Assembly: GCA_009773645.1 (NCBI GenBank)
Contig: WSYB01000009.1
Span: 1,480 to 65,479, forward strand
Direction of reading: 5' to 3'
Source: Geobacteraceae bacterium
Lineage (GTDB): Bacteria; Desulfobacterota; Desulfuromonadia; Geobacterales; Geobacteraceae
DNA length: 64,000 bases
Numbering within the stretch: the first letter of the stretch is position 1; the number at the start of each line of letters is the position of its first letter. The notes under the pieces were generated by a model. It saw only the letters and a program-made list of their open reading frames with translations, ran no database searches and was not told the DNA's origin. Made by a program: the position numbers and the translations under genes. This document shows positions 3,098-63,900 of the stretch, piece by piece.

Positions 3098-3772
3098 TAC
3101 GTCGTACCTGACGGGGTCAGGTACGCCCGCCTCGGCGAATCCCTTCAGGCGCAGGCGGCAGGAATCGCACAGGCCGCAGGCGAGCCCTTCCGGGGAGGGG
3201 TCATAACAGGAATGGGTGCAGGAATAATCCACTCCCAGGGAGAGTCCCCTGGCTATGATCTCCCCCTTGGTCAGATGAATGAGGGGGGTGTGGATCTTGA
3301 ACCGGCCGGTCCCTTCCACCCCCGCCTTGGTGGCCAGGTTGGCCATTGTCTCATAGGCGGCGATGTATGCCGGGCGGCAGTCGGGATAGCCGGAATAGTC
3401 CAGGGCGTTCACGCCGATGAAGATGTCGAAGGCGCCGAGCACCTCGGCCCACCCGAGGGCAAAGGAGAGGAAGATGGTGTTTCTGGCCGGTACGTAGGTC
3501 ACCGGGATGTCGCTCCCCACCCCTTCCTTCGGCACTGCAATCTCTGCCGTCAGGGCGCTCCCCCCCATTTTGCGCAGGTCGAACTCCACCACCAGATGTT
3601 CCGCCGCCCCCATCGGCAGGGCGTTGGCCTTGGCGAATTCCAGTTCGGCCTTGTGGCGCTGACCATAGGCGAAGCTGATGGCGTACGGCTCGAACCCCTC
3701 TGCTCTGGCGATCGACAGGCAGGTGGTGGAGTCGAGACCGCCGCTGTAAAGGACGACGACTTTTTTAGACAT
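3083..3772 (-). CDS. queC: 7-cyano-7-deazaguanine synthase
   Basis: [19 protein letters not shown] (PP-loop), [10 protein letters not shown] and a C-terminal [10 protein letters not shown] zinc site. Start trimmed to the ATG at 3772. Confidence 0.9.
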
Positions 3773-3855
3773 GGCTTCAGGTTCCTTTTTCGATGAACGG
3801 CTGGAAGGGATCACCGGAACAATAACATCGGGGATGAGGAATTTACAACGTGAAA

Positions 3856-4938
3856 TTAAAAGAGCGAAAACTTCACGTACCGCTTCGGGTTTTCCTTGAT
3901 GTCCCTGACCAGGGCGTCCAGGTCGCCGACCATCCGGTCGAGTTTTTCGTAGATATCCTTTTCGGTCACGAGCTTGCCGACGGTCCCCTCTCCCCGGTTG
4001 ACCCGGTCGGTGATCTCCTCGAAGGACTTGACCGAGCGGTCGGCCCGGTCGATGAGTGCCATTCCCCTGTCGTAGAACTCCCGGTCGGTAAGAAACTTGC
4101 CGATGGTGCTCTCGCCGGAGGTAAGTTTCCTGTTCAGCTCGCGCACGTCGTCGGCTGCCAGGGAGCTCTTGTCGGCCAGGGCCACCAGCTTGTCGTAGAG
4201 TTGCCGGTCGTAGATCAGTTTGCTCATGGTCCCCTGGGAGTCCTGGATGTCTTTCAGGGTCTCGTCGGCGCGGGTGAGAATGCTCATCAGCCGGTCATAG
4301 GGCTCGCCGCTCCTGGCCAGCTTGCCGAGGGTACCTTCTCCCCGGTTCGCCGTATCGACTAGCGACCGCAGTTCGACGGTAAGCCGGACCATGTTGTCAT
4401 AGAGCTTGGGGTCCTCGGTGAACCTGCCGAAGGTCCCTTCCCCCCGGTTTACTTTCGCTATGATCCGGTTCAGTTGATCAAAGGCGGTCCCTGCCTTGGC
4501 CACGACATCGTCCAGCTTCGCCACCGGCGTCCCGTAGAGTCGCTTCGCGGGAACCTCGGAATAGACCTTGCTCGGGGTGATGTCGACGTATTTTTCCCCC
4601 ATGAGGCCGCGGGTCTTGACGGTGATGACCGAATCGGGACCGATCTTCCTGAGCGCTTCCCGGTCTACTTCGAGGTCGACATCCACCTCATTGCTCTCAC
4701 GGGGCCGCACGAAGCGGATTCGGCTCACCGCCCCCACGTCTACCCCCGCCAGCCAGACGGGGGCACCTTCCTTGAGGCCGGCAACGTCGGTCATGATGAC
4801 CGTAAGCTCTCCCTTGGGGATAAAAAGCTTGGTCTTCTTCCCCATGAGGAGGATTCCCCCCGCCAGGAAGATAAGGGCGCAGATGATGAAGATCCCGACC
4901 TTCACCTGCGACCAGACAATGTTATCGCTTCGCTTCAT
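3856..4938 (-). CDS. mlaD: MlaD/MCE-family protein with repeated C-terminal helical modules
   Basis: N-terminal TM then an MCE domain ([25 protein letters not shown]). About five repeats of G(E/Q)GT.GKL...LYD follow. Start at 4938 has GGAGGGG upstream and overlaps the mlaF stop. Confidence 0.8.
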
Positions 4939-8876: not shown

Positions 8877-8928
8877 CGAGTAGTCCTTACGGTCAAAAGG
8901 GATTGGTAAATCCGGATAATTTCTCTCA

Positions 8929-8957
8929 AGAGTAACCAGTTAAAGCCGTCATGTCAA
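8929..8957 (-). promoter_or_regulatory. Possible sigma70 promoter for lon
   Basis: On the minus strand: TTGACA (8952-8957), 17 nt, TACTCT (8929-8934), about 55 nt upstream of the lon ATG. Weak -10. Confidence 0.25.
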
Positions 8958-8972
8958 GGAAAGACAGGAACA

Positions 8973-8994
8973 GGGGACCGGGGACCGGGGACCG
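8973..8994. repeat. Heptanucleotide tandem repeat (GGGGACC)x3
   Basis: ggggaccggggaccggggaccgg, read directly. It lies just upstream of the putative lon -35. Confidence 0.9.
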
Positions 8995-9049
8995 GTAAAA
9001 CCGTGATCGAAATCCTGACCTTTGATGTCTGACCCCATGGCCCTCTTTT

Positions 9050-10984
9050 CTACTGCAGCGCTTCCCATTCCTCGTAGAGTCCGGCGATTCTGGCGGAGAG
9101 GCACGCGTGCTCCTCTCCTACCCGTCGGGCCGTTTCATGGTCCTTGAAAAAGTCGGGATCGGACATCCGCACGTCCAGGGCAGCCAAAAGCCCCTCCAGT
9201 GCTTCAATTTCCCCTTCCAGCTCGGCGAGCCGCTTGAGCCTCTGCCGTTCTTCCTTCTGACGCTGTTTTTCATCTTCCCGCAGCCTTTGCCGCTCCTCTT
9301 TTGAGGCAGGGATCGGGAACCGGGGATCGGGAACCGGGATCCGGGAACCGGGATCCGGGAAGCGGGATTCGGAACAGGGAAGCATCGTCGCTTTCTTGGC
9401 CAGATAATATTCGTAGTCCCCCGGATAGGAGGTTATCATTCCACCTTCCACCTCTACGACGCGGGTAGCCAGGCCGTCGATAAAATGGCGGTCGTGGGAG
9501 ACAAATACCACTGTACCGGCGAAAGCCCTCAGGGCATCCAGCAGCACTTCCTTGCTGAACAGGTCCAGGTGGTTGGTCGGTTCATCCATGAGGAGAAGGT
9601 TGGCGGGACGCAGCAGCATCTTGGCCAGGGCGAGGCGGTTGCGCTCCCCGCCGGAAAGGACCGCGACCTTTTTTTGGATGTCGTCGCCGGAGAAGAGGAA
9701 AGCTCCGAGAATATCGCGTAACTGGGGCACCATGTCGTAAGGGGCGTCGGCCAGGATTTCCTCATAAACGGTCCGTTCAGAGGAGAAGACCTGAGCCTGG
9801 TCCTGGGCAAAGTAGTCGAGCGCCACGTTGTTGCCGGGAATCCTCTCTCCGCTCTGGAATGCCTCCCCTGCCAGCACCCGCATCAGGGTCGATTTGCCCG
9901 CACCGTTGTGTCCTACGAGGGAGAGCCGCTCACCCTTTTCAATGGTGAGATCGATGTTGTCCAGGACCACCCTGTCTCCGTAAGATTTAGTAAGGCCGTG
10001 CATTTCCATGACGACCCGCCCGCTCTTGGGAGGCTCTGGGAAGCGGAACCGGATCTTTTTCCGCTCCGGCGGGAGGGATATCCTCTCGATCTTCTCCAGC
10101 TGTTTAATGCGGGACTGGACCAGCGCCGCCTTGTCCGCCTTGTAACGGAAGCGGGCAATGAAATCCTCGATCTTCTGCACCTCCTCGTCCTGGCGGCGTT
10201 TCGCCTCCCTGAGGGCGAAGACCCTTTCTTCCCGCTCCGAGAGGTACTTGCTGTAATTGCAGTGATAGTCGGTGAGGGTATGGTTCCACACCTCCACGAT
10301 GCGGCTGCAGACCTGGTCCAGGAAAAACCGGTCGTGGGAAACGAGCATGACCGAGTACGGGTATTCCTGCAGGTATCCTTCCAGCCAGTTGCGCGCCTCG
10401 ATGTCCAGGTGATTGGTCGGCTCGTCCAGGAGGAGGACGTTGGGTTTGCGGAGCAGGAGCTTGGCAAGGGCGATCCGCATCTGCCAGCCACCGGAGAATT
10501 CCCCGCACTCCCTTTCCCAGTCGGAGGGGGAGAAGCCGAGTCCGCGCAGCACGTTTCCCACGACCGCCTCCATGGCGTATCCCCCCTTCAGCCTAAACTC
10601 CTCCTGCAGGGTTCCCAAGCGCTCCAGGAGTCCGGCATGGTCGGGTGCGTCGTGGGGGATCGTCTCCAGCCGTTCGGTCAGCTCTTTCTGTTCCTTCTCG
10701 ATCCCTTGCAGCTCGGCAAGGGCGGACATCACCTCGGCAAAGAGGGGCCTCCCCCTGGTGACGATGCCGTCCTGCGGCAGGTAGCCTGTCGTAGCTCCTT
10801 TGGCAAGCAGTATAGATCCGGAAGAGTGTTCCACCTCCCCGGCGATGATCCGCATCAGGGTCGATTTTCCCGCCCCGTTTTCACCGACCAGCCCAACCCG
10901 CTCCCCCTTCTTGAGGTGCCAGTCGATATTTTCAAAAAGCGGTTTCCCCGCAAAATCCTTGGTGAGGTTTTTCAGTTGCAGCAT
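9050..10984 (-). CDS. ABC-F family ATPase (Uup/YheS-like) with C-terminal coiled coil
   Basis: Two ABC cassettes (GENGAGKST and GHNGAGKST; LSGGWQMR and LSGGERNR) and a charged C-terminal tail EERQRLREDEKQRQKEERQRLKRLAELEGEIEALE. Start trimmed to MLQLKNLTKDF (10984). Confidence 0.9.
   Translation of the reverse strand: MLQLKNLTKDFAGKPLFENIDWHLKKGERVGLVGENGAGKSTLMRIIAGEVEHSSGSILLAKGATTGYLPQDGIVTRGRPLFAEVMSALAELQGIEKEQKELTERLETIPHDAPDHAGLLERLGTLQEEFRLKGGYAMEAVVGNVLRGLGFSPSDWERECGEFSGGWQMRIALAKLLLRKPNVLLLDEPTNHLDIEARNWLEGYLQEYPYSVMLVSHDRFFLDQVCSRIVEVWNHTLTDYHCNYSKYLSEREERVFALREAKRRQDEEVQKIEDFIARFRYKADKAALVQSRIKQLEKIERISLPPERKKIRFRFPEPPKSGRVVMEMHGLTKSYGDRVVLDNIDLTIEKGERLSLVGHNGAGKSTLMRVLAGEAFQSGERIPGNNVALDYFAQDQAQVFSSERTVYEEILADAPYDMVPQLRDILGAFLFSGDDIQKKVAVLSGGERNRLALAKMLLRPANLLLMDEPTNHLDLFSKEVLLDALRAFAGTVVFVSHDRHFIDGLATRVVEVEGGMITSYPGDYEYYLAKKATMLPCSESRFPDPGSRIPVPDPRFPIPASKEERQRLREDEKQRQKEERQRLKRLAELEGEIEALEGLLAALDVRMSDPDFFKDHETARRVGEEHACLSARIAGLYEEWEALQ
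9309..9375. repeat. About nine tandem GGGAWCC-type heptamers inside the ABC-F coding sequence
   Basis: gggatcgggaaccggggatcgggaaccgggatccgggaaccgggatccgggaagcgggattcggaac. Translated on the minus strand it gives SESRFPDPGSRIPVPDPRFPIPAS, between the second ABC cassette and the coiled coil. Confidence 0.85.
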
Positions 10985-40803: not shown

Positions 40804-42438
40804 ATGGAACTGATCAATCAGCATACGAAAAATATCATGGAAGGGTGCAAGGAGAGGGCGCGCAAGGCGGGCCTTTCCTTTCAGGACGAAACCCTGGAAT
40901 ATATCGTGACCAACCGCGACCTCCTGGAGCTCTCGCCCAAGGTGATGATCCCGACCCTTTACGACTACTGGGTGCACGACGTTGACGTCCTGAAAGAAAA
41001 GGGGAAGTACGAGCTGTATCCCCACAATCCCTATGAAACCGTCATCAACACCCGGCCCCCCATCTCCTTTTACAATGACAACAACCCGGACTGGCTGAAC
41101 GTGATGATCTTTTACCACGTCCTGGCCCATATCGATTTTTTCCAGAACAATCTCTATTTCCGCCATACCTGGGACTACGATTTTAACGGCCAGGCACTTT
41201 CGGACAAACGGACCATCGCCAAGCTCAGGGCGGAAAAGGGGCGGTGGGTGGACTACGTGATCGAATTTGCGCGCGGCATTGATAATCTCGTGGGGTATCA
41301 CAGCGAGTTGTCGCGGCTCCACCGTCCCCCCGCGACCAACCGGTCAAAACGTCTCGATTTTTACTTCGACGTCTTCCTGCAGTCCGTGAAAAAAGTGTCT
41401 GTCACCGAATATGTCAAGGAAATAGAGAGGTACAACGACAGTATCAAGAACTTCGGAAAGCAGGGGGAGAAGACGTTCTTCGCCGACGCGGAGCGGAAAT
41501 ACCCTGAACTGGAGGCGCTTTTCACCAGGAGCCTGGGTGAAAAAGCGAACCACCGAAGGGATCTGATGCAGTTCATGATGGACCATTCCGAGTTCCTGAA
41601 GAAGGATGCGAATACGTGGATGAAATCGGTAATGGAGGTGGTGCGCAAGACCTCCATCTTTTTCCAGCCGCAGATCCGGACGAAGATCATGAATGAAGGG
41701 TGGGCCAGTTACTGGCATGACCGGCTCTTCATGCAGGATGACCGTATCCGGGGGCATGAGGTGGATTATGCCCGGATCAATGCCGGGGTCACCGCCATGC
41801 CGCGCGTGGGACTGAACCCCTATGCGCTCGGGATGCGCCTCTTTTCCCATATTGAAGAAACAGCCGATAAGGGGAGATACACCTTTGACTTCCTGCGACT
41901 CTCTGACGCGGAAGCGCGGGAAGAGTTCGATACCGTCACCGGCGAGGGACAAAAGTATATCTTCAGTGTCCGGGAAAATCTGTGCGACTTCACGTTTATA
42001 AAGACCTTTGTGGAGCAGGATTTCATCAACGAGCACAAACTGTTTGTGGCCGGGAAGAGGTTGAACCAGGGGAGGATGGTGTGGGAGTATTATGTCAAGA
42101 GCCGCAAAGCGGATGTGTATCGCCGGATGGTTCTCGATTCACTCTATCATCCCCCATTCATTGAGGTGGACCCGAAAAAAACCGCCGGCAACACCCTCTA
42201 TCTCGTCCATCACTTCGAGGGGAAACCGCTGGTAAAGGAATACATCGCCAATACCATGATGGGGATCGAATATCTCTGGGGCGGCCCGGTCCAGTTGGAG
42301 ACGAGCGTGGTAGAGGCCGAATTGCCGGCGCAGGAGTCGGCTGCGATGGTGGAAGAGACGGAACCCCGCATAAAATGGTGCCGGGTCCTGTATACCATGA
42401 AGGAGCGGCAGCTTTCGCAACAACAAATAGAAACGTGA
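40804..42438 (+). CDS. spoVR: SpoVR family protein
   Basis: 544 aa. YHVLAHIDFFQNN, NEGWASYWH and a conserved C-terminal LYLVHHFEGKPL-type region. Confidence 0.9.
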   Translation: MELINQHTKNIMEGCKERARKAGLSFQDETLEYIVTNRDLLELSPKVMIPTLYDYWVHDVDVLKEKGKYELYPHNPYETVINTRPPISFYNDNNPDWLNVMIFYHVLAHIDFFQNNLYFRHTWDYDFNGQALSDKRTIAKLRAEKGRWVDYVIEFARGIDNLVGYHSELSRLHRPPATNRSKRLDFYFDVFLQSVKKVSVTEYVKEIERYNDSIKNFGKQGEKTFFADAERKYPELEALFTRSLGEKANHRRDLMQFMMDHSEFLKKDANTWMKSVMEVVRKTSIFFQPQIRTKIMNEGWASYWHDRLFMQDDRIRGHEVDYARINAGVTAMPRVGLNPYALGMRLFSHIEETADKGRYTFDFLRLSDAEAREEFDTVTGEGQKYIFSVRENLCDFTFIKTFVEQDFINEHKLFVAGKRLNQGRMVWEYYVKSRKADVYRRMVLDSLYHPPFIEVDPKKTAGNTLYLVHHFEGKPLVKEYIANTMMGIEYLWGGPVQLETSVVEAELPAQESAAMVEETEPRIKWCRVLYTMKERQLSQQQIET

Positions 42439-42469
42439 AGAATGAAGGGTGAAGTTTCACCATTCACGA
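42435..42469. repeat. GTGAAG-unit hairpin between spoVR and the prkA-like gene
   Basis: gtgaagaatgaagggtgaag-ttt-caccattcacg. The spoVR TGA (42436-42438) lies within the first unit. Confidence 0.6.
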
Positions 42470-42482
42470 GGATTACATAGAT

Positions 42483-44807
42483 ATGTCAAACATTGAAAAA
42501 GCCCTGCAGAGTCTGAACCGCACCATAAGCGAACGGGACCACGCGACGTCCATCTCTTTTGAAGAGTTTCTCAATTTGATGGCCGCCAAACCCGCCGTCG
42601 TGATACGCAACGTTTTCCAGGTGTTTCACGACATGATCAAGACCTACGTGGGGGAAGGGGTCGATGAGTATCCCGACGATCCCGAAACCATCAACTACGT
42701 AAACTACGACTGCAGCCGGCTCTTTGTGGAAAACTCGGACCACCCGTTCTTCGCCGACAGGCTTTTCGCCAACCGGTTGATCAACCATGTGGAAGCGATG
42801 AAGCGCGGGAAACAGCAGAACAAGATTTACATCTTCGAGGGGCCTCCCGGAAGCGGCAAGAGCACATTCCTCAATAATCTCCTCTTGAAATTCGAAGAGT
42901 ACGCCAATACTGAGGCGGGGGCCAGATATGAAACGGTCTGGAGGCTGGATCGGAAAATACTGGGGAGGTTTGCGGAACACGAGGTCACCCATTTCCTGGA
43001 CAAATTATCCAACCTGCTCGATGAATACGAATTCGACCAGCAGGAAGTGGCGGAAGCGAAGAGCTCGCTGCACTTGGCCGAAGAGTTCATCGAGGTCCCC
43101 TGTCCCAGCCATGACAACCCTATTCTGATGATCCCCAAGCATTACCGCCGCCCTTTTTTCGACGACCTGTTCAAAAACGACGAATTCAAGTGGAAACTGT
43201 TCACGGACAAGGAGTACGACTGGGTGTTCAGGGAGAATTCCTGCACCATCTGCAGCTCCCTCTATCAGGCCCTCCTTTCCAGGATGAACAGCCCCCAGGA
43301 CGTTTTCCGCATGGTCTTCGCGCGCCCTTACCGGTTCAACAGGCGGCTGGGGGAGGGGATCAGCGTCTTCAACCCCGGCGATAAACCGATGAAACAGAAC
43401 ATCCTGACCAATGACATGCTGCAAAAACGGATCAACGATCTGCTCAAGGACAGCAACCAGGTTAAATACGTCTATTCACAATACGCAAAGACCAACAACG
43501 GCATCTATGCCCTCATGGACATCAAGTCCCACAATGCGGAGCGGCTCCTTGAGCTCCATAATGTCATCAGCGAGGGGCTCCACAAGGTGGAAGACATCGA
43601 GGAGAACGTCAATTCCCTCTTAATCGCCCTCATGAACCCTGAAGACGAAAAAGCCATTCAAGGTTTTCCATCGTTTTCCGACCGCATCGAATTTATCCAT
43701 ATCCCCTACGTCATGGACCTCAATACGGAAGTGGAAATCTACCGCAACATCTTCGGCAGGCATATCGACGAAAGCTTCCTCCCGCGGGTTCTGCACAATT
43801 TTGCCAGGATCATCATCTCCACCCGGATGGACACCAAGTCCGACGCCCTGCTGGAATGGATCGGCAATCCCGAAAAATACCGCCTCTATTGCGACGAGAA
43901 CCTCCAGATACTCAAGATGGAAATCTACACGGGGCATATTCCCACTTGGCTGTTGGAGGAGGACCGGAAACGGCTCACGGCGAAAAGAAGGCGGAAAATC
44001 ATCGCGGAATCCGAGACGGAAGGTGAACAAGGCTTTTCCGGACGCGACTCCATCAAAATTTTCAATGACTTTTATTCCGCCTACGCCGGGAGAGACAAAC
44101 TCATCACCATGTCGATCCTGTGCAATTTCTTCGTCAAATGGCGCAAAGACCTGAACATGTCGATACCCAGGGGGTTTCTCGACTCACTGCTGTGCAATTA
44201 CGACTACACGGTCCTGCAGGAAGTGAAGGAGTCTCTCTACTATTACAACGAGGAACAGATTGCCAAGGATCTGATGAATTACATGTTCGCCGTCAACTTT
44301 GAGCCGGGGAGGGTCGAGATCTGTAAATTTACCGGGGAAAAGCTTGAAATTTCCGAAGATTTCCTGACGGGGATCGAGAACCACCTGCTGGGAAGTAAGG
44401 TTGATGGCGACAAGCGGCTCGCCTTCAGAAAAGAGACCCAGAAGGAATACACATCCAAGACACTGACTCAGGAAATTATGGTTGAAGGAAAGCTTGTTAC
44501 CGAAACAAAGCTTTATCACTCCCTCCATGAACGCTACGTGTACAACCTGAAGGAAAAGGTGCTCGACCCCTTCCTGGAGAACGTCAACTTCCGCCGCGCC
44601 ATCAAGGACTTCGACACGGAGGGCTTCAAAACCTACGACAAGCGGATCAAGGCCGACGTGACCTTCCTGATAAACAATCTCTGCGCCAAATACCGCTATA
44701 CCAAGCAGGGAGCGAAGGAAGTCTGCATCTACGTCATCGACAACGACCTGGCAAAGAAGTTTGTCGAACCCGAACCTGTGGAAACGCAAGACCTCCGTTC
44801 CGATTGA
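42483..44807 (+). CDS. Divergent PrkA-like P-loop protein (second PrkA paralogue in the cluster)
   Basis: N-terminal layout mirrors PrkA (SISFEEFLNLM..., ...NKIYIFEGPPGSGKSTFLNNLL). 774 aa. The C-terminal two thirds are not assignable by eye. Confidence 0.65.
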   Translation: MSNIEKALQSLNRTISERDHATSISFEEFLNLMAAKPAVVIRNVFQVFHDMIKTYVGEGVDEYPDDPETINYVNYDCSRLFVENSDHPFFADRLFANRLINHVEAMKRGKQQNKIYIFEGPPGSGKSTFLNNLLLKFEEYANTEAGARYETVWRLDRKILGRFAEHEVTHFLDKLSNLLDEYEFDQQEVAEAKSSLHLAEEFIEVPCPSHDNPILMIPKHYRRPFFDDLFKNDEFKWKLFTDKEYDWVFRENSCTICSSLYQALLSRMNSPQDVFRMVFARPYRFNRRLGEGISVFNPGDKPMKQNILTNDMLQKRINDLLKDSNQVKYVYSQYAKTNNGIYALMDIKSHNAERLLELHNVISEGLHKVEDIEENVNSLLIALMNPEDEKAIQGFPSFSDRIEFIHIPYVMDLNTEVEIYRNIFGRHIDESFLPRVLHNFARIIISTRMDTKSDALLEWIGNPEKYRLYCDENLQILKMEIYTGHIPTWLLEEDRKRLTAKRRRKIIAESETEGEQGFSGRDSIKIFNDFYSAYAGRDKLITMSILCNFFVKWRKDLNMSIPRGFLDSLLCNYDYTVLQEVKESLYYYNEEQIAKDLMNYMFAVNFEPGRVEICKFTGEKLEISEDFLTGIENHLLGSKVDGDKRLAFRKETQKEYTSKTLTQEIMVEGKLVTETKLYHSLHERYVYNLKEKVLDPFLENVNFRRAIKDFDTEGFKTYDKRIKADVTFLINNLCAKYRYTKQGAKEVCIYVIDNDLAKKFVEPEPVETQDLRSD

Positions 44808-49910: not shown

Positions 49911-52766
49911 TTAATACCCACCCGAATGGCACTCCCAGCAGACATAATCAATGCCGTTCCATGCCTGATAGCCGCGGTAGGTCTTGCCCCACTTTACCGT
50001 TGTCTGCCCAAGGTGGCAGGAAACCGAATTACAGCTCTTAGTCTCTTTATCATACGTGGCACCGGTGAGACTGAAATCTGTACGCGTGATATTTCCCCAC
50101 CAGTCAGCGCGCTCCATCGTAAATGGTTTGGTCTTCTCAAAGGCAACATCTTTTTTACCATTGACATGCTTGGAGAAACCGGCAATCGGCACACTGCTGA
50201 AATTGGTGTAGAAAGGTGGATTTGAGCGCCACCATTTGCTGTCTGCCTTAACAGTATCATTATGGCAATAGTTGCAGGTAATGGGGTTCATGTTAAACCA
50301 TTCCTTGTTGAAATGCCCCTGTTCATAATCCCATGGGTTCCCCCATGCATGGCTGTCGCCAGTCATGCCGTCGTTGGTAGTGTAATCGGTTCTTGGCGCA
50401 TTGGCATGACAACCACTGCAACCGTCCGGCAGTGATGAGTTCCAGGTAACATCACGGTAGACACGGGTGACCTGGAGATTGGCCTGGGCATAACCGTCAC
50501 AGTAGCGCGATCCGGATTCGTTCGTGAAGGTGCAGTCTGTCGGCGTGGTAAATGAATTGTAGCTGTGGCAGTAGATGTTGCTGCAGGTGCCGTTGGTATA
50601 GGCGAATCCCCTGCTGTCGGTGTGACTGCTGGTGCCGTTGGTATAGGCGGCTGTTGCCGGGTTCATGGCCTTCAAAGAGCCTGCCGCAGATTGAGAGTTG
50701 TAAAGTTCCACATCGATGACCCCGTTGCCGTGCCTTGCCCGATCGATGGGGTGACAGTTGCCGCAGTTCATGATGTAGCCGGTGGCATCGGGCGTGAAGT
50801 CCTGGGCGATCCTGACATCGCCATAGGCTGCCTGGACCACGGTTCCGGAGAAATGCTTCCGGTGTGCCACGGTATCCGGCGGGGCATCGTGACATTCGTC
50901 GCAGGGGAGGGTGGTCCCCCAGGTTGCGTTTCTGCCGCCATGACAGCTGATATTGCTGCATACCCCACCTGGAGCCGCATAGGAGTAAGCAAAGGTAACC
51001 CCACTGCCTGCAGTGACATCATAAGCCTTGTTGACGTGGAGGGTGATGCTGGAGATGGCCGAGCCGGAGGTGGTCGTGCCGAAGTGGCAGCGGTTGCAGC
51101 CGGCCCCGCTGTGCTGGATATGGCTGTTGGCCTTGGATGAACCGGTGCCGTATCCCGGCGGATAGCCGTGACAGGAGCTGCAGGCAACTGCACCGCTCCC
51201 CCAGTTGGTGGTGGCGCTGGAGGGGATGGTGCCTGTCGATATCGAGGTGCCGTTACTGTGGCAATAGGTGTTGGTGCAGTTGGCATAGCCGTTGCCCGGC
51301 TCCGGGCTCCCCAGGTAGGCACTCATGTTGCCGAAGGTGGGGTCGAGCCTGACATCAATCTTGCCGTTGGCATGCTTTACGGAGGTGCCTGAGGCATGGC
51401 AGATGATGTTGCCGTAGGGGTTGCCGAAGCAGCTGGTGACGAACGGGTAGTCGGTGTATTTGTGGCAGATCATGCACTTGACGGTATTGGTCGTAGTGGT
51501 GAAGCTGTAGGAAAGATGCTTGATATGGCTTCCTGTGGCCATTTGGGATGTGGAGCCATGACCATGACCGCCGGTGGCATGGCAGCCGCCGCAGCCGATC
51601 GAGTTGGCGGCCCCCCAGGTGGGGTTGTCATAAGATGTCGGTCCGCCGATCCCGCCATCGGGCTGAACATCGGAGTGGCAGTAGACGTTGGCGCATTGTC
51701 CCACTGTTCCGCCGGGATCATGACCGCTGACTGTGTAACTTCCGCCAAAGATCGGACTCAGCGCTACGTCGATTTTTGTGTTGACATGGTTGGCAGGATT
51801 TACAACCGTTATGTTACCGGTAGCAGTCGTATAGTGGCAGGTACCGCATGGGTAGACGTACTGGCCATAGTAGTCACGGCCGGTATGCATGGTGTGGGAA
51901 CCGCTGGTGATCTCAGTGGCTGTGCCGTGGCCGTTGCCATGGCACCCCGTGCAGTCTGGCGGAAGTGGTGTCCCCCAAACAGGAACAATATTTGAAACGA
52001 AGGTACTTTTGCTGTCCCCCTTGCTGTGGCAGTAGACATTGCTGCAGTTGCCGAACTGGTTGGTCTGGCTTTTGGGGAGATAATCGTCCAGAGCTCCGGA
52101 ATACGAGCCGTTTGCGGAGGAAAACGGGTTCTGGACGGCTAGGATGAGGTTCCGTCCGGCGCTTGTCGCGTGACCAAAGGGGGGGCTGTCGGTACGGTGA
52201 TCGGTATGGCACTTCGCGCAGCCGGCCGTACCGGAATAGTACAGATCATGCTTTGCGTGACTCCCGGCCGCGCCGCTGTCACCACCCCCCGGCGGCGAAC
52301 CGTGGCATTGCGCACAGCTGTCCGGTACCGTAAATGCCGGTCCGCCCCAGGTCGGGGTCTCACGTTCGAAGTGGCAGTTCACGTTGCTGCAACTTCCCAG
52401 TCTTGGAGTGGTCCGCTGCGGGAAGGCGGTTGAGCCGTTCCTGTAAACGGCTGTCAGGGGGGAATTGTTGATGTTCAGGGAGATTTCTATCAGTGAGTTG
52501 CGGTGACCGGGGCCGTATTCCGCCGTTTCCTGATGGCACTTGGAGCATGAAGAGGCACCGGCTGCCGGAACCATGTGAGTCCGGTGGTTCCCCTGGAATC
52601 CGCCGCTGGAGATGTTGCGGTAGGGAGAATCAACGGGCCGGTAATCCGGCGGGTTGGTAACCCCGTGGCACTGGTAACATTCCATGGCGAGAACCGGAAT
52701 GGGTGATAATAGGAAAAAAAACGTAGCAATGCAGGCAAATCGCGGAACCGGCTTCAATCGTAACAT
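49911..52766 (-). CDS. Large secreted multihaem c-type cytochrome built of CX4CH...CXXCH...CXXCH modules
   Basis: Signal peptide. By my count 15 CXXCH and 7 CX4CH motifs (CSNVNCH, CSNVYCH, CANVYCH, CTNTYCH, CSNISCH, CSNIYCH, CNSVSCH), plus one CX9CH-like site (CFGNPYGNIICH). Confidence 0.9.
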   Translation of the reverse strand: MLRLKPVPRFACIATFFFLLSPIPVLAMECYQCHGVTNPPDYRPVDSPYRNISSGGFQGNHRTHMVPAAGASSCSKCHQETAEYGPGHRNSLIEISLNINNSPLTAVYRNGSTAFPQRTTPRLGSCSNVNCHFERETPTWGGPAFTVPDSCAQCHGSPPGGGDSGAAGSHAKHDLYYSGTAGCAKCHTDHRTDSPPFGHATSAGRNLILAVQNPFSSANGSYSGALDDYLPKSQTNQFGNCSNVYCHSKGDSKSTFVSNIVPVWGTPLPPDCTGCHGNGHGTATEITSGSHTMHTGRDYYGQYVYPCGTCHYTTATGNITVVNPANHVNTKIDVALSPIFGGSYTVSGHDPGGTVGQCANVYCHSDVQPDGGIGGPTSYDNPTWGAANSIGCGGCHATGGHGHGSTSQMATGSHIKHLSYSFTTTTNTVKCMICHKYTDYPFVTSCFGNPYGNIICHASGTSVKHANGKIDVRLDPTFGNMSAYLGSPEPGNGYANCTNTYCHSNGTSISTGTIPSSATTNWGSGAVACSSCHGYPPGYGTGSSKANSHIQHSGAGCNRCHFGTTTSGSAISSITLHVNKAYDVTAGSGVTFAYSYAAPGGVCSNISCHGGRNATWGTTLPCDECHDAPPDTVAHRKHFSGTVVQAAYGDVRIAQDFTPDATGYIMNCGNCHPIDRARHGNGVIDVELYNSQSAAGSLKAMNPATAAYTNGTSSHTDSRGFAYTNGTCSNIYCHSYNSFTTPTDCTFTNESGSRYCDGYAQANLQVTRVYRDVTWNSSLPDGCSGCHANAPRTDYTTNDGMTGDSHAWGNPWDYEQGHFNKEWFNMNPITCNYCHNDTVKADSKWWRSNPPFYTNFSSVPIAGFSKHVNGKKDVAFEKTKPFTMERADWWGNITRTDFSLTGATYDKETKSCNSVSCHLGQTTVKWGKTYRGYQAWNGIDYVCWECHSGGY

Positions 52767-57323: not shown

Positions 57324-57785
57324 TTACGGATCGTTTTTCCCGCATTCGGCGTCGGCGATCGACTCCAGCCGCGAATTAATCGGGATATCCTCCCATGCGG
57401 TTTTTTCCGCCAGATTGAATTCTTTTATGCGGTTTCCTTTGTTGTCGTAATGGACTATCTGTTTGAGGTGACTCTTCATCCCCTTGCAGTCGATGTCGTA
57501 CAAATACAGGCTGTAGGCGAGGTTCTCATAGGCCTTTGCCTTCAAAATCCGCAGGGTGTCGGCTTTCCCCTCCTCCGTATATGCCACCTTCGCCCATACG
57601 CTGGTTATCCCCTCCGGCGACCGGGAGATTGAGGATTTGTTGTAGTAAAAATCCGAATGGTCGGGTTCGGAGTCCAGCAGTTCCCAGTTTGCCTCCTCTC
57701 CCCGGGAGAGGCTATGGCTCCCCAGAATGCCGATCGCAACCAGCACCAGTAATGTCTTTCGCACTGCGTTTCCAGTCATGGCCAT
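57324..57785 (-). CDS. Secreted protein resembling the surface-adhesin-E-like family
   Basis: Signal peptide MAMTGNAVRKTLLVLVAIGILG, then W.LL....D..FYYNKSSI....G.TSVWAKV.Y...LYDIDCKG. GAGGAGG RBS upstream of the ATG at 57785. Confidence 0.55.
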   Translation of the reverse strand: MAMTGNAVRKTLLVLVAIGILGSHSLSRGEEANWELLDSEPDHSDFYYNKSSISRSPEGITSVWAKVAYTEEGKADTLRILKAKAYENLAYSLYLYDIDCKGMKSHLKQIVHYDNKGNRIKEFNLAEKTAWEDIPINSRLESIADAECGKNDP

Positions 57786-57937
57786 TCTTTTCCTCCTCTG
57801 TGGATCAGTTCTCCGCATGTCTTCCAGTATAGCCCCCTTTTCCGGACTCGCAACGGGAGGACCGTGAAACTTTAGTACAATCCGGTTTGACACACCGATA
57901 TCAGATGTTATGATTTGCTAATGCAGTCGCAAGCAAT

Positions 57938-58143: not shown

Positions 58144-58653
58144 ATGCGCAGAATGATTATGGTTGTTGTTGCAACGGTAGGGTTGCTGGTCCCCGTGGTG
58201 GCATTATCGGTAATGGAAGATGTCAAGGCCCATCAGAGCTGCACGTATTGCGGCATGGACCGGGAGAAGTTCGCCCACAGCAGGGTGCTAATTGAATATG
58301 AAGACGGAACCTCAACAGGGCTGTGCAGTATCCGCTGTGCTGCGGTGGAGCTTGCCAATGCGCTCGACAAGACCCCGAAATCCATCAAGGTGGGCGATTT
58401 CGGGAGCAAGGATCTGATAGAGGCCGAAAAAGCATCCTGGGTCATAGGCGGCACCAAGCAGGGGGTAATGACCCGCCAGGCCAAATGGGCATTTGCGCAG
58501 AAGGCCGATGCCGAGCGCTTCATGAAGGAAAACGGCGGTCGTCTCGCATCGTTCGATGAGGTGATGAAAGCCGCTTACGAGGACCTCTCCCAGGATACGA
58601 AGATGATCCGCGAAAAACGGAAGATGAAGCGCATGCAGATGGAGAAAAAATAG
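58144..58653 (+). CDS. NosL-family protein (putative copper-binding accessory protein)
   Basis: Signal peptide, then CTYCGMDREKFAHSR...GLCSIRC...WAFAQKADAERFMKENGG, which fits NosL-like proteins as I recall them. Confidence 0.7.
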   Translation: MRRMIMVVVATVGLLVPVVALSVMEDVKAHQSCTYCGMDREKFAHSRVLIEYEDGTSTGLCSIRCAAVELANALDKTPKSIKVGDFGSKDLIEAEKASWVIGGTKQGVMTRQAKWAFAQKADAERFMKENGGRLASFDEVMKAAYEDLSQDTKMIREKRKMKRMQMEKK

Positions 58654-60300: not shown

Positions 60301-60312
60301 ATTCCCTTCATA

Positions 60313-60342
60313 ACAAAAAAGACAGGGCCGTTGCCGGCCCTG
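60313..60342 (-). terminator. Rho-independent terminator for the oxidase / PEP-CTERM operon (minus strand)
   Basis: Minus-strand reading: cagggccg-gcaa-cggccctg followed by tctttttt. Confidence 0.7.
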
Positions 60343-60368
60343 CCTTTGAACACCATCGGGTGAATCAC

Positions 60369-60923
60369 TCAAACCTTCTGGAATTTTCTCCTGAAGCCGT
60401 ACAGCCCGGCCAGCCCCGCCCCGAGAAGCAGGAAGGTGCCGGGCTCGGGGACGACTTCCACCCTGCCACTGGCGGCGACATCTACTAAGCCGGTGGCAGG
60501 GTCAAGGTCAAGCACCGTGCCCGTCAGATCGAGGGGGCTGATGCCGACGCCGATGCCGGTAAAGGAGAGGGTGGCAAGGGTGAACGCCCCATTTGTCAGC
60601 GCGGTGCCCAGGTCTAATGCGCCGTCGAAGGTCACCTGATCAGGGGTGTCCGCTGTCGGTGGATCGAAGCCGGTGATATAATTGGACAAAACCGGGTTGA
60701 ACAGCAGGTCGTTAAAACCCAGAATCGCCGGGGCAAAAGTGAGGGCAAAGTTAAACCCGAAAAGCGATTCAGTAGAGCCAACCGCCAGGTTCACGTCCAC
60801 CTGGGCGCTATCCCCGACCAGAATCGTCTGTGAAGCGGGAGTGAGAGAGACGCTGTACGCCATGGCCTGGCCGGCGAGGGCAAGGGAGCAGAGCAGGCTG
60901 AGCAGATAGACAAATTTCTTCAT
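60369..60923 (-). CDS. PEP-CTERM-anchored secreted protein with a cohesin-like beta-sandwich domain
   Basis: Signal peptide MKKFVYLLSLLCSLALAGQAMA. C-terminal VPEPGTFLLLGAGLAGLYGFRRK (PEP-CTERM). The body has a cohesin-like pattern: VGDSAQVDVNL...LFGFNFALTFAPAIL...GAFTLATLSFTGIGVG. Confidence 0.75.
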   Translation of the reverse strand: MKKFVYLLSLLCSLALAGQAMAYSVSLTPASQTILVGDSAQVDVNLAVGSTESLFGFNFALTFAPAILGFNDLLFNPVLSNYITGFDPPTADTPDQVTFDGALDLGTALTNGAFTLATLSFTGIGVGISPLDLTGTVLDLDPATGLVDVAASGRVEVVPEPGTFLLLGAGLAGLYGFRRKFQKV

Positions 60924-61025
60924 GTTGATCCTCCTTATTTCATTTGTTGAACGGAATTCATCCTTCGCACTTTCTACTCGGAAACGGCGGGCGCCCCGGT
61001 GTGAGGCGCCCGCCAGGCACGGCCG

Positions 61026-63542
61026 TTAAAGCGTATTTCTAACATTGAAAAAGAACCTGGCGTCGAGCAGGTCGACCTTTCCGTCATCGTTGAGATCGAA
61101 GCCGGGGTTACGGGGAGCCGGCTTGCGGATCTCTTTCAGGAGAATGATGTAATCCGCGTCGTTCACGGCCCCGTCCAGGTTGAAGTCGGGGAACGCGGGA
61201 TTAACCCGGACTACGTAGGGCCTCATCATCTCGTTGTCCTCATGCTCGACGATATGGCAGTGCCAGACGTAGAGACCGGGGATGTCGAACTTGGCCTTGA
61301 TCCGGGTGACCTCGCCCGGCAGAGAAACGACGGTGTCCTTGAATCCCGTCTCCCAGGGTTGCGGAGGCGCCGCTGGGGAGTTGGCATCGGCCTGGGGCAA
61401 GAAGGTAGCACCGGTGGGGTCCGTGGGGTCCAGTGCAAGGGGCTGGCGGCTGACCACCTGGAAGCGCACCAGGTGCAGATGGATCGGGTGTGCGTCCGCC
61501 GTCAGGTTGAAGAGCTCCCACTCCTCCGTGTCTCCCAGAATCGGTTTCTCCGTGACGGGGTCCATGAATTGCAGCGCGGTTGCCGCCCCTGCCGAAACCG
61601 TACCCAGGAGGGCCGCCCTGGGACCCATCGGCTCGCCGCCGGCCGCCGCGCAGTCGGCAGCGAAGTTCGGACCGGACGCGACGCCGGTGACCTGGGTGAT
61701 GCTGAGCAGGGTGGTGCCTGCGGCATCGAAGTTGAAGCTGACGCAGACCGTATGCGACCCGTCTTCGTTGAGGGAGAGCTGCCGCGTTTTTGGAGGGTTA
61801 TTAGGATCTACAATGTTGCCTTCAAAGGCGGTCGAGAGATCAAGGTTCCTTGGGAGAGTGGTGTTGGCGTCAGAGGGTTTCAGCAGCGCGCCGTTGACCA
61901 CGAACTCCATCACCTGGCCGGTAGTGTCGGGGTCGGCCGGGACGTCCGGGAAACCGCCGAAGGGGGTGTCAGGCGCGGTGTTGAGCATCCTCACTCTGAC
62001 CGTGCCGGCCGGGAGGTTCGAGAAATCGACGATGACGTCGGCCCTCTCCGCAAGCCCCATCAACAGGGCCGGGGCCGTGCCTGGCGCCGGGAATGTCGTG
62101 GGCAGTGCCGGTTCGGCAGCACCCGGTGTAAGCTGGACCTGCTCGCCGGACACGATCCGGACGACCTGCGGCAGGAAGCCCTGCTCGGCGCCGATCTGAT
62201 AGAAGGGGACCTCGCCCAGCGAACCGCCGTTGGCGCTAAAGGCCACCAGGCTCAGGTTGAGGAACCGGGAGTTGCAGCCGTTCAACAGCCGGAGCCGGTA
62301 ACGGGCTGGGGCCACTTCAAGCTTCGGCCAGGTGGTGCCGTTGACCACCATGGTATTGAAGAAGGCCTCCGGGTTCCAGATGGGGGAAATATCGCTGAGA
62401 ACGGTCGATGACACGCCAAAGTCGGCCAACTGGGGAATGAGCGGAATCTGGAGATCGGCCGGGGCCAGCCCCTCGAAGAAGGCCCGGTTGTCCGGGTAGA
62501 AGAGCGAGCCGTCGGCTTTGAAGGAGCGGTCCTGGATCGCGATCGGAATCTCGCGGATCGTGGTCCGGACGGCGGAATTGAAGTTGGGATCACCCCCACC
62601 TGCCTTTGGAGCGGGGCCGGGAAGCATGGCGGTGTTCCCGGTATTGTCCTTCACGTTGGCATCGCCGTTCGCCCCGCCCCGAACGAGCCAGAAGCCGGCC
62701 GGTCCGGCATAGACGTTGGAGCGCGTCATGCCCATGGCGTGGTCGTGATACCAGAGAGTGGTCGCGGGCTGTTTGTTTTCATAGCCGTAAAACGCGGACC
62801 CGGGGACGTTGTTGTTACGGTTGAACTGGTCGAACTTCGGACCCCGCTTGGCGAAGCCGGTCAGGTTGTTCGCGGCGGGGAGCCACCATGCCTCGGGGTA
62901 GCCGTCGCTCTCCGGGTTCACATGGGCGCCGTGCACATGGGTGACGATGGGGACCGGACCGGTGTAAGGCTTCTGGCATTCGACCGTGTTGTTCACGTTT
63001 GTGCAGTCGAGGTTCCCAGGGTTCGCCCAGTGGAGGGTCTGGTCCACGGGTAGCAGGTGGGGCAGGAAGTTACCGGTCACCGGGTCCTTCAGGTCGTTGA
63101 TCCACCTTACCTTGGTCAACAATCCCGAGGTGGCCTCCACGGTGAATGCCGGGTAGTTGAAGGATGTGTTCGGAGCCGGAGCAATTGCCGGCGCCTGGTC
63201 CTGCGCCCGGCCGTAACTCCAGATGGTGGTCGCCCCGAACGGGTCAGTCCGGCCGTTTAACGTATTCCATATCCCGCCGGGCAGGATCTGCTGCTTGAAC
63301 TGCCGGACCGCGATGTTGTAGTCGGCCGGGAGAGTGGGCTGGGGCTGGACGGTGCTCTTCGGCATCGGCGGCGGAATGACCAGCGGGGTCACGTACTTCG
63401 GGATAATGAGCGGGTCGAGCCCGTTAACCGGGTCGCCCGGCACAGGTGCAGCGGACGCGCCCTGCAAGTTCCCCTGCGCAAGCAGGAACAGTGCCGCTCC
63501 AACTGTGACGACTGCTTTTCTTAGCATGTTTCTTTCTGCCAT
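61026..63542 (-). CDS. Secreted multicopper oxidase (CotA/bilirubin-oxidase-like, OmpB-like) with a C-terminal dockerin module
   Basis: Cu sites HVHGAH, WYHDHAMG, HPIHLHL and HCHIVEHEDNEMM. C-terminal DFNLDGAVNDAD...DLNDDGKVDLLD forms two dockerin/EF-hand-like repeats. Start at 63542 with AGGAGG 9 nt upstream. Confidence 0.9.
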   Translation of the reverse strand: MAERNMLRKAVVTVGAALFLLAQGNLQGASAAPVPGDPVNGLDPLIIPKYVTPLVIPPPMPKSTVQPQPTLPADYNIAVRQFKQQILPGGIWNTLNGRTDPFGATTIWSYGRAQDQAPAIAPAPNTSFNYPAFTVEATSGLLTKVRWINDLKDPVTGNFLPHLLPVDQTLHWANPGNLDCTNVNNTVECQKPYTGPVPIVTHVHGAHVNPESDGYPEAWWLPAANNLTGFAKRGPKFDQFNRNNNVPGSAFYGYENKQPATTLWYHDHAMGMTRSNVYAGPAGFWLVRGGANGDANVKDNTGNTAMLPGPAPKAGGGDPNFNSAVRTTIREIPIAIQDRSFKADGSLFYPDNRAFFEGLAPADLQIPLIPQLADFGVSSTVLSDISPIWNPEAFFNTMVVNGTTWPKLEVAPARYRLRLLNGCNSRFLNLSLVAFSANGGSLGEVPFYQIGAEQGFLPQVVRIVSGEQVQLTPGAAEPALPTTFPAPGTAPALLMGLAERADVIVDFSNLPAGTVRVRMLNTAPDTPFGGFPDVPADPDTTGQVMEFVVNGALLKPSDANTTLPRNLDLSTAFEGNIVDPNNPPKTRQLSLNEDGSHTVCVSFNFDAAGTTLLSITQVTGVASGPNFAADCAAAGGEPMGPRAALLGTVSAGAATALQFMDPVTEKPILGDTEEWELFNLTADAHPIHLHLVRFQVVSRQPLALDPTDPTGATFLPQADANSPAAPPQPWETGFKDTVVSLPGEVTRIKAKFDIPGLYVWHCHIVEHEDNEMMRPYVVRVNPAFPDFNLDGAVNDADYIILLKEIRKPAPRNPGFDLNDDGKVDLLDARFFFNVRNTL

Positions 63543-63900
63543 GGCTTTTTTTCCTCCTTTCGAAAGTTTTCCGCAATCATCCATGATATGTTTTTTCATT
63601 ACCTGCCTGTAAATCCTGATTGATCTTTTTTTCTGTCTCTCTGTCTCCTTTCCTTTGGTTTTATAGTCCTGTTAAAAACAAAGTGGCCGGACATGCCATC
63701 AGGAAAAATCCTTCGGCAGCCCGGCCATCTTCCATTGCGAAGACCCGCGGCATTCCGCCTCCGCCTCACGACGGGTTCGGCCTTTCGGGATAATAAAGAG
63801 AAACCGACTTAATTTGTCTGATCCAGATAAAACCGACTCAAGACACTTCAACCCTATATTTCTTCTACTTGTGATGCTCTCGCAAATTCTCAAAAATAGT

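Follow-up and report, generated by a model that had tools for sequence, protein, structure and literature searches.

A putative cohesin-dockerin module linking a multicopper oxidase to a PEP-CTERM protein in Geobacteraceae

Organization of the two-gene locus

The window (the whole 64-kb stretch of DNA analysed) carries on its minus strand a multicopper oxidase gene followed by a gene for a small secreted protein. The longest possible open reading frame of the oxidase extends over 61026-63599(-) and encodes 857 aa. An ATG at 63542, with the RBS AAAGGAGGA just before it, gives a gene at 61026-63542(-) and a product of 838 aa, in agreement with the 838-aa NCBI record FD174_1285; Pfam and a PDB match to CotA also support the gene. 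The second gene was located at 60369-60923(-), and its 184-aa product matches FD174_1284, from a Geobacteraceae MAG, at 100% identity.

The spacer between the two genes measures 102 nt. It contains a GC-rich hairpin with 13 bp and no U-tract (60985-61015(-)), recognized from the sequence and the RNA fold (-40.5 kcal/mol; z = -2.98), after which come only GUUUCC and the RBS of the second gene (AAGGAGGA, 60929-60937(-)). This hairpin may serve as an attenuator or mRNA stabiliser, and such a strong stem could reduce read-through. The two-gene unit is closed by an intrinsic terminator (60308-60347(-); 13-bp stem; fold z = -3.6), a canonical structure at 60347-60318 with a T-run after it. The same terminator sequence lies directly 3' of the oxidase in a related locus from which the second gene is absent (L053). 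Both genes and the spacer hairpin were found where the initial annotation had placed them, and the terminator that it reported was present with coordinates off by about 5 nt.

Upstream of the oxidase gene, no convincing match to a sigma-54 or sigma-70 promoter was obtained. Co-transcription of the two genes is nevertheless plausible from the sequence at this locus, because they share a strand, no promoter-like site was found between them, and the intergenic gaps amount to only 14 to 30 nt in several relatives, which indicates operons there. Cohesin, double-loop dockerin and PEP-CTERM tail each occur exactly once in the whole window. A NosL-like gene had also been described nearby, and Pfam bore this out (58144-58653; 2.3e-17); it is carried by the other strand, and downstream of it comes an aldehyde dehydrogenase gene convergent with the gene for the 184-aa protein.

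The oxidase ends in a dockerin

The oxidase is a CotA-like three-domain enzyme with large insertions, a Sec-type signal peptide and a C-terminal dockerin. It matched Cu-oxidase_2 (8.5e-22) and Cu-oxidase_3 (5.9e-5) in Pfam and CotA chains in PDB (1.4e-57). Three-domain oxidases of the CotA or bilirubin oxidase type are defined here by the copper ligands HxH, HxH, HxxHxH and HCHxxxHxxxxM. As had been claimed for this protein, all four histidine motifs could be located: HVHG at 62939-62928, WYHDH at 62753-62739, HPIHLH at 61490-61473, and HCHIVEHEDNEM at 61262-61227.

The last ~57 aa (61029-61199(-)) form the dockerin module, which was detected by Pfam, AF2 and Foldseek. Two calcium loops, DFNLDGAVNDAD at 61187-61152 and DLNDDGKVDLLD at 61097-61062, lie 30 residues apart; both are of the F-hand type (D1, N/D3, D/N5, D12), and each is followed by a helix (model residues 20-31 and 50-62). 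The Pfam Dockerin_1 profile (PF00404) gave 23.0 bits, only 0.1 bit above the cutoff of 22.9, while orthologs scored 27.6 to 28.8 bits and the partners in other loci 27.6 to 30.5 bits. The AF2 model reached a pLDDT of 94.7, and the best 24 Foldseek matches in PDB were all dockerins (TM 0.56 to 0.74), with weak E values (0.07 to 4) due to the module being only 63 aa long. Thus, the reading of the C-terminal repeats as a dockerin, first made from the sequence alone, was upheld by profile and fold alike.

The small protein is a cohesin with a PEP-CTERM tail

Three elements make up the whole 184-aa protein: a signal peptide, a single cohesin domain and the PEP-CTERM signal. The signal peptide (aa 1-22; 60858-60923(-)) was assigned by inspection as MKKFVYLLSLLCSLALAGQAMA, ending in GQAMA before YS; it forms an N-terminal helix in the AF2 model, and its A-x-A motif is conserved in the family alignment. 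The sorting signal at the extreme C terminus (60372-60452(-)) combines VPEP, a TM helix and the basic cluster RRKFQK (VPEPGTFLLLGAGLAGLYGFRRKFQKV). As the initial annotation had proposed, this is a PEP-CTERM tail, with scores above the curated cutoffs for both PF07589 (32.9 bits; cutoff, 20.7) and TIGR02595 (26.0 bits; cutoff, 16). No exosortase (EpsH/Xrt) was seen among the 14 neighboring proteins scanned in the window.

The domain between these signals (aa 23-157; 60453-60857(-)) was identified as a cohesin from AF2, Foldseek, the family profile, a subthreshold Pfam match and its composition. It is all-beta and very acidic, and the AF2 model (pLDDT 91.4) is a nine-stranded beta jelly roll. 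Its best 31 Foldseek matches in PDB were all cohesins (E 3.6e-11; target-normalised TM up to 0.82), and when the family profile was compared with PDB sequences, cohesin chains came first (E 6.5e-4). The Pfam Cohesin profile (PF00963) gave only 15.8 bits (E 0.016) for the window protein, below the cutoff of 24.1; singly, 12/22 family members matched it at E<0.1, the best at 2.6e-5. The earlier description of this protein as cohesin-like is therefore borne out by its fold but not by the Pfam HMM.

A weak similarity to YcnI (Foldseek ranks 46 to 48) raised the copper chaperone as a candidate function. It was rejected, since His, Cys and Met are all absent from the mature domain, which is thus not a metal-binding partner.

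The cohesin family comprises 181 clusters at E<=1e-30. A PEP or VPxP motif was present in 21/22 members, and PxP tails were found in 124 short representatives.

Cohesin and dockerin genes stay together while the cargo changes

From the cohesin side, a dockerin gene was immediately adjacent in 10/10 cases with readable gene context. At least five classes of dockerin-bearing cargo were distinguished: multicopper oxidases (the window, Pelotalea and Nitrospirae); an unknown protein of 535 to 621 aa (three loci, Syntrophorhabdus among them); a PKD/Big_1 protein in a betaproteobacterial MAG, where the whole pair occurs as a tandem duplicate; and two proteins whose dockerin is N-terminal, namely an EGF-repeat protein and a CxxCH protein. 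The adjacency was kept despite replacement of the cargo and flanking genes, the N-terminal position of the dockerin and an inverted gene order.

From the oxidase side, the cohesin gene lay directly downstream in 7/10 dockerin-bearing oxidases and in 0/55 evaluable dockerin-less relatives (Fisher p = 1.7e-7, a value that the common ancestry of the loci inflates). The co-occurrence of the two genes beyond the window thus held from both sides. The three dockerin-bearing oxidases with no adjacent cohesin gene (L052 from Geotalea, L053 and L133) indicate that the linkage is not obligatory; their partner, if any, is encoded elsewhere in those genomes. Cohesin and dockerin pairs fall into distinct diverged clades, and pairwise identities of the two modules were correlated over 11 pairs (r = 0.91; Mantel p ~1e-4, likewise inflated by shared ancestry).

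Two scans looked for further loci. The profile scan of genome contigs was seeded on the generic PEP-CTERM motif; 35/37 loci shared only the tail, and just two (L013 and L020) belonged to the family, so that the scan contributed little to the statistics. The metagenome scan was seeded on the copper site and returned nearly exclusively dockerin-less oxidases, which served as negative controls; it added two dockerin-positive loci. Locus L017 was excluded as a further pair, as its dockerin-like loops sit inside the PEP-CTERM protein itself. Charge complementarity between dockerin and cohesin was also discarded, since it does not hold in every clade; the dockerins of group C keep a net negative charge with two Ca2+ bound.

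The gene context points to copper handling

The initial annotation had linked the oxidase to the OmpB and OmpC proteins of Geobacter. In Geobacter sulfurreducens, OmpB and OmpC (presumably GSU2657) are likewise secreted proteins of the multicopper oxidase family, from the same order. This link was not supported by a comparison made with an OmpB-type protein. We take the OmpB type to be a protein of ~1300 aa with C-terminal fibronectin type III domains. The window oxidase has 838 aa and no fn3 match, and its identity to an OmpB-type 1295-aa fn3 oxidase is a patchy 26%; assignment to this type was therefore rejected. The 1295-aa protein is without dockerin loops and is encoded as a separate gene beside the oxidase ortholog in Geotalea; an OmpB-type gene also lies near the ortholog in L133. 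No G. sulfurreducens protein was among the best 120 homologs listed for the oxidase. Instead, genes for a CopA-type ATPase/HMA, NosL, YtkA, FKBP and a MauG-type peroxidase recur as neighbors in related loci, which suggests a context of copper handling and not one of reducing Fe(III) oxides.

A tethering module as the preferred explanation

The match of both folds, together with an adjacency conserved across phyla and cargo types, strongly supports a cognate module. We propose, with a probability of roughly 0.7, that the two genes form a tethering module, that is, a cohesin-dockerin pair adapted to a double-membraned bacterium. The oxidase would be exported via Sec, carrying its C-terminal dockerin with two Ca2+-binding loops, and the Ca2+-loaded dockerin would bind the cohesin. 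Through its PEP-CTERM tail, the cohesin protein would at first be held in the inner membrane. Processing by an exosortase of the EpsH/Xrt family would follow, and the protein would then reach the cell surface or the exopolysaccharide matrix, a fate that has been proposed for PEP-CTERM proteins in general. Bound to the sorted cohesin, the oxidase would thus be retained at the cell envelope or matrix and would not diffuse away.

An anchoring module of two genes dedicated to the oxidase had been put forward for this locus. The two-gene tether agrees with the folds and the adjacency, but its dedication to the oxidase does not stand, since the cargo is of five or more types. The module is generic: in other bacteria, the same cohesin/sorting-tail gene accompanies genes for dockerin-tagged proteins whose functions are unrelated.

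The complex might also stay in the periplasm, with an uncleaved C-terminal helix keeping the cohesin protein in the inner membrane and, through it, the oxidase on the periplasmic side of that membrane, without surface display. The Sec signal peptide of the oxidase, the lack of any sign of outer-membrane translocation in the window, and the periplasmic copper-handling neighbors of related loci (CopA-type ATPase with HMA, NosL and YtkA) would suit such a location, and as long as it is uncleaved, the TM helix with its basic cluster anchors the protein in the membrane. However, the PEP/VPxP motif and PxP tails are conserved in nearly all family members, which argues for recognition by a sorting enzyme and not for a plain anchor, and PEP-CTERM proteins have been proposed to leave the inner membrane (PMC1569441). 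We therefore regard periplasmic retention as unlikely. Were it to apply, a possible role would be Cu(I) detoxification beside a copper-exporting ATPase.

In a variant that we consider quite improbable, the cohesin protein is a carrier that takes dockerin-tagged cargo from the periplasm via an exosortase-associated route, so that the dockerin acts as a transferable secretion tag. The dockerin is the sole feature common to the diverse cargo, which has Sec signal peptides but no recognizable outer-membrane export signal, and one-to-one operon pairing with co-diverging modules would fit a dedicated carrier. Yet such piggyback export would be unprecedented, how PEP-CTERM proteins are exported is not established, the adjacent carrier gene is missing at the three oxidase loci named above, and the outcome overlaps largely with that of tethering. 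Those three loci would also be compatible with no specific interaction at all, the dockerin being a Ca2+-binding stabilising or matrix-binding element and the small protein an unrelated Ig-like PEP-CTERM matrix protein, conserved in gene order but functionally unrelated. Pfam support is marginal for both modules in the window proteins, and for many dockerin-like modules outside cellulosomes no partner is known, as stated in PMC5244752 (citing Peer et al. 2009). Against this, the adjacency outlasts every rearrangement listed above, the cohesin neighbor never accompanies the 55 dockerin-less oxidases, and both folds match cohesin and dockerin specifically, which leaves the absence of an interaction highly improbable.

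Implications of the proposed tether

The recurrence of the pairing in several phyla with varied cargo suggests an undescribed tethering route for secreted proteins of double-membraned bacteria. More broadly, we give an even chance to the idea that single-cohesin PEP-CTERM/VPxP proteins are widespread, undescribed exosortase-sorted "sockets" in diderms of several phyla, which plug dockerin-tagged proteins into the surface or matrix. Oxidases, cytochrome-like proteins and adhesin-like repeat proteins would be the cargo in that reading.

Exosortase substrates are mostly proteins without known function, and their destination is unproven. A large PEP-CTERM substrate family with a binding domain and a partner offers a handle for tracking where they go. 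Similarly, genomes commonly encode cohesin and dockerin modules unconnected with cellulosomes, whose function is obscure, and one-to-one operon pairs provide cognate pairs to test directly. If the sockets are real, they would give PEP-CTERM/exosortase sorting, and likewise noncellulosomal cohesin-dockerin pairs, a first concrete function open to testing, and metal-cycling bacteria would have a concrete mechanism for keeping secreted oxidases or redox proteins on the cell or biofilm matrix. Should the diverged clades not cross-react, they could serve as a natural set of independent Ca2+-dependent tags for surface display in Gram-negative hosts.

Comparison with known systems

The pair shares its two folds, and the duplicated Ca loops of the dockerin, with the type I pairs of clostridial cellulosomes. 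The closest arrangement is that of OlpA/OlpC of C. thermocellum (PDB 3ul4 and 4dh2), where a single-cohesin anchor tethers a dockerin-bearing enzyme to the envelope, as predicted here. Unlike the clostridial systems, this one occurs in a diderm and has a PEP-CTERM (exosortase) signal as the anchor in place of SLH domains or a sortase signal; its partners are encoded by adjacent genes, paired one to one. The module is not a cellulosome: each protein has one cohesin, there is no multi-cohesin scaffoldin and no CBM, and the cargo comprises an oxidase and other non-CAZyme proteins. Sequence identity between the window cohesin and solved cohesins is only 11 to 20%.

Cohesin-dockerin pairs also occur outside cellulose degradation, and 2xdh, 2jh2 and 2vo8 were among the best structural matches of the cohesin. 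We take 2xdh to be an Archaeoglobus fulgidus cohesin and 2ozn to be the C. perfringens NagH/NagJ complex; these cases come from archaea and Gram-positives and lack an exosortase-type anchor. Peer et al. 2009 reportedly surveyed noncellulosomal cohesin and dockerin modules, and may list Geobacter proteins. We found no paper tying cohesin-dockerin to PEP-CTERM/exosortase. In ANME archaea, cohesin/dockerin proteins have been hypothesised to hold multiheme cytochromes (PMC5244752). There, too, cohesin-dockerin is proposed as an organizer of extracellular redox proteins, likewise as a hypothesis, but the system is archaeal, with no PEP-CTERM anchor and, as far as described, no two-gene operon pairs.

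PEP-CTERM/exosortase (EpsH, Xrt) sorting was predicted in 2006 by Haft et al. (PMC1569441), who listed Geobacter species among the organisms with EpsH exosortases and for whom the fate of PEP-CTERM proteins was itself only a proposal. The small protein has the same tripartite C-terminal signal and N-terminal signal peptide. The words cohesin and dockerin have 0 occurrences in that text, by whose account PEP-CTERM proteins show little homology to known proteins and have been assigned no role; in the present case, by contrast, the passenger is a recognizable protein-binding module with an identifiable partner.

Organization of the oxidase locus

Two open reading frames (ORFs) were called on the minus strand at 60369-63599. 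The upstream one encodes an 838-aa CotA-like multicopper oxidase (61026-63542), and the one directly downstream encodes a 184-aa protein with a signal peptide, a cohesin, and a PEP-CTERM tail (60369-60923). The start of the 838-aa version, at 63542, has AAAGGAGGA directly on its 5' side. The 102-nt spacer (60924-61025) contains a 13-bp GC hairpin (60985-61015; fold z = -3.0), followed by GUUUCC alone and then, in the 3' part of the spacer, by a strong ribosome-binding site for the cohesin gene. No promoter-like site was found when this spacer was scanned, and a canonical terminator with a T-run (60347-60318, minus strand) lies 3' of the small gene. The ORFs, start, spacer hairpin, and terminator described in the initial annotation were thus confirmed. 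A Geobacteraceae metagenome-assembled genome (MAG) encodes proteins with 100% identity to both, FD174_1285 (838 aa) for the oxidase and FD174_1284 (184 aa) for the small protein, and each is annotated there as "hypothetical protein."

The spacer is also in frame with both genes, so that a single TAA parts the dockerin from an open frame entering the cohesin gene. Stop-codon read-through, if it occurs, would give a fused dockerin-cohesin protein; the shared frame is probably coincidental. A 951-aa multiheme c-type cytochrome (49911-52766, minus strand) lies about 8 kb from the oxidase and has the Geobacter CxxxxCH...CxxCH motif, an MtrC/MtrF-like domain, and cytochrome c7-like features. Between a metallo-beta-lactamase-fold gene and the NosL-like gene lies a gene (57324-57893, minus strand) whose 189-aa product has a Surface-adhesin protein E domain (Pfam, 2.5e-7). 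SpoVR-like and PrkA-type serine kinase genes stand side by side at 40804-44807 (plus strand) and belong to the conserved PrkA/YeaH/SpoVR stress module.

Identification of the dockerin and the cohesin

The oxidase matched Cu-oxidase_2 (8.5e-22) and Cu-oxidase_3 (5.9e-5) in Pfam, all four copper-ligand motifs were present, and CotA-type laccases were its best solved relatives (PDB, 1.4e-57). Its Dockerin_1 score was 23.0 bits, against a cutoff of 22.9. Because this score lies at the threshold, the last 63 residues were modeled together with 34 homologs. The model (pLDDT 94.7) consisted of two loop-helix units, and its 24 best PDB fold matches were all dockerins (TM 0.56-0.74), with E-values that were weak because the module is small. 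The tails of orthologous oxidases scored 27.6-28.8 bits. The dockerin proposed for the oxidase C terminus was therefore upheld by both the Pfam score and the fold matches. Across the wider oxidase family, the C-terminal module was a dockerin, FG-GAP/VCBS, Y_Y_Y, or Big domains, or was missing, which indicates that the dockerin is one of several swappable appendages.

The PEP-CTERM signal claimed for the small protein was clear (PF07589, 32.9 bits; TIGR02595, 26.0 bits). The cohesin claim stood at the level of fold and family profile but not in Pfam, where the protein itself was below threshold (15.8 versus 24.1). When a profile of 22 family members was compared with the PDB, cohesin chains ranked first (5lxv, E 6.5e-4), and 12 of the 22 matched Pfam Cohesin individually (best, 2.6e-5). 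The Pelotalea chapellei member is already named "cohesin domain-containing protein" at NCBI. For the AF2 model (pLDDT 91.4), the 31 top-ranking PDB matches were all cohesins (E 3.6e-11; TM up to 0.82). Together, the profile, memberwise Pfam matches, NCBI name, and predicted fold support a divergent cohesin. The mature domain is devoid of His, Cys, and Met and has a net charge of -13, which rules out a role as a copper chaperone.

Conservation of the dockerin-cohesin pair

The surroundings of every cohesin family member on a usable contig were surveyed, and a dockerin gene was immediately adjacent in all 10 distinct cases. The cargo was a multicopper oxidase in the window, L001 (Pelotalea), and L002 (Nitrospirae GWD2), and a 535- to 621-aa protein with no assigned function in L005, L010 (Syntrophorhabdus), and L012. 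A PKD/Big_1 cargo was found in a betaproteobacterial MAG (L020), where the whole pair is tandemly duplicated; in Nitrospirales MAG L013, a 580-aa cargo (3165-4907) combined three CxxCH motifs with an N-terminal dockerin-like module. In L008, an uncalled plus-strand ORF downstream of the cohesin gene (7127-8752) encoded nine EGF repeats and, at the N terminus, a Dockerin_1 module (23.6 bits). Flanking genes differed in every locus, and the adjacency was kept despite changes in cargo, dockerin position, and even gene order.

Several of these loci had further features. In each tandem copy in L020 (417-6467), the gene for a 715/721-aa PKD/Big_1 and dockerin protein precedes that for a cohesin/PEP-CTERM protein, and the two cohesin copies are identical. 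The CxxCH motifs of the L013 partner are of the heme-binding type; a 901-aa paralog on the opposite strand (6652-9357) shares its conserved central block (ATVAME...FFVFDKDG...LDG.GAK). The EGF repeats in L008 are teneurin-like (E 2.8e-48). The gene caller had placed two minus-strand genes over this ORF; given its domain content, those calls are probably wrong, and the ORF is probably the partner of the upstream cohesin. L017 (3364-5951) encodes three PEP-CTERM proteins in succession, the first with a dockerin-like double Ca loop inside and its own PEP-CTERM tail; unlike in the window, both elements are thus combined within one protein.

Seen from the oxidases, long contigs carried 10 that bear a dockerin, and 7 of these had a cohesin-family gene directly downstream (window, L001, L002, L050 [Geobacter sp. 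SVR], L051, L134, and L135), whereas no cohesin-family ORF was found in 55 evaluable loci of dockerin-less relatives, which came from scanning metagenomes with the copper site as seed, blind to the C terminus (Fisher p = 1.7e-7, a figure inflated by kinship among loci). The gene-pair co-occurrence expected from the initial annotation was thus observed. In addition, dockerin and cohesin identities correlated over 11 pairs (r = 0.91; Mantel p ~1e-4), which shows that dockerin and cohesin have been passed on and have diverged together; correlation alone is no proof of binding.

The directly downstream cohesin gene was not found at L052, L133, and L053, and the Ca loops were intact in all three oxidases. 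In L052 (Geotalea toluenoxydans), the oxidase adjoins an OmpB-type gene. L053 holds the closest relative of the window oxidase (in the copper-site segment, the two are 77% identical). When L053:4480-4600 was set against window positions 60308-61025, the oxidase stop was followed by a hairpin and then by the window's terminator sequence (GGGCCGGCAACGGCCCTG plus T-run), with the cohesin gene absent. By this comparison, the cohesin gene is a clean presence/absence polymorphism between relatives.

Oxidase type and neighboring genes

A link to OmpB had been suggested, but it did not hold: fn3 domains are absent from the oxidase, and its match to an OmpB-like protein of 1295 aa is patchy, with just 26% identity, which rules out an OmpB-type identity. 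The OmpB-like protein, unlike the window oxidase, lacks dockerin loops. Neighbors recurring at dockerin oxidases were a CopA-type ATPase with an HMA protein, NosL, YtkA, an FKBP isomerase, and a MauG-type peroxidase. Such a neighborhood would fit copper handling or the oxidation of metals better than Fe(III) oxide reduction. In the flanks of L051, L133, L134, L135, and L002, the FKBP-type peptidyl-prolyl isomerase occurred in four loci. The CopA-type P-type ATPase with an HMA protein occurred near dockerin oxidases in two loci, and NosL was present in two copies in L133 and one in the window; YtkA and CCP_MauG peroxidase (two) were also among the flanks.

Breadth of the cohesin family

The family profile, searched against 1.84 billion representatives, matched 181 proteins at E<=1e-30 and 4,576 at E<=1e-10. 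Among the best 149 matches, 124 were single-cohesin proteins of about 180 to 240 aa and 25 were long. Of these 124 short proteins, 54 ended in a PEP-type tail and 50 in a PVP/VPLPA-like one, so different exosortase subtypes may act on a single kind of passenger domain. The partners in L051 and L134 have a VPLPA-like tail below the threshold of TIGR03370. Of the long matches, 23 had 3 to 7 cohesin repeats together with anchors of other kinds; these proteins look like scaffoldins of uncultured, probably nonclostridial organisms. They include P0146, P0149, P0156, P0190, and P0245, and some have an apparent T9SS-type C-terminal domain, others a transmembrane helix and basic tail. Public sources were checked for names of 10 family representatives, and none was found.

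Proposed mechanism and comparison with known systems

Two mutually binding fold types are encoded here as a conserved unit, one on a secreted enzyme and the other on a protein whose sole further features are export and sorting signals. The dockerin would bind the cohesin in a Ca2+-dependent manner. An exosortase would process the PEP-CTERM tail, and the protein would reach the cell surface or the exopolysaccharide layer, a route that follows the proposal of Haft et al. (PMC1569441), who list Geobacter as an EpsH carrier. Hence, the oxidase would be tethered. Periplasmic retention of the complex and its piggyback export are live alternatives, which differ from tethering mainly in the final location of the complex.

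In the literature searched, which did not extend to a key 2009 survey of noncellulosomal modules, we found no paper that combines cohesin/dockerin with PEP-CTERM/exosortase or reports a multicopper oxidase that naturally bears a dockerin and has a cohesin partner. A review of ANME archaea (PMC5244752) gives cohesin/dockerin and PEP-CTERM/exosortase only as separate domain counts, and one metatranscriptome paper (PMC6199725) mentions in passing Geobacter genes annotated as dockerin, cupredoxin, and laccase. Thus, the components are known, and their combination, which is computationally well supported and directly testable, appears undescribed: one-to-one pairs in operons of diderm hosts, with an anchor of the exosortase type and cargo other than CAZymes.
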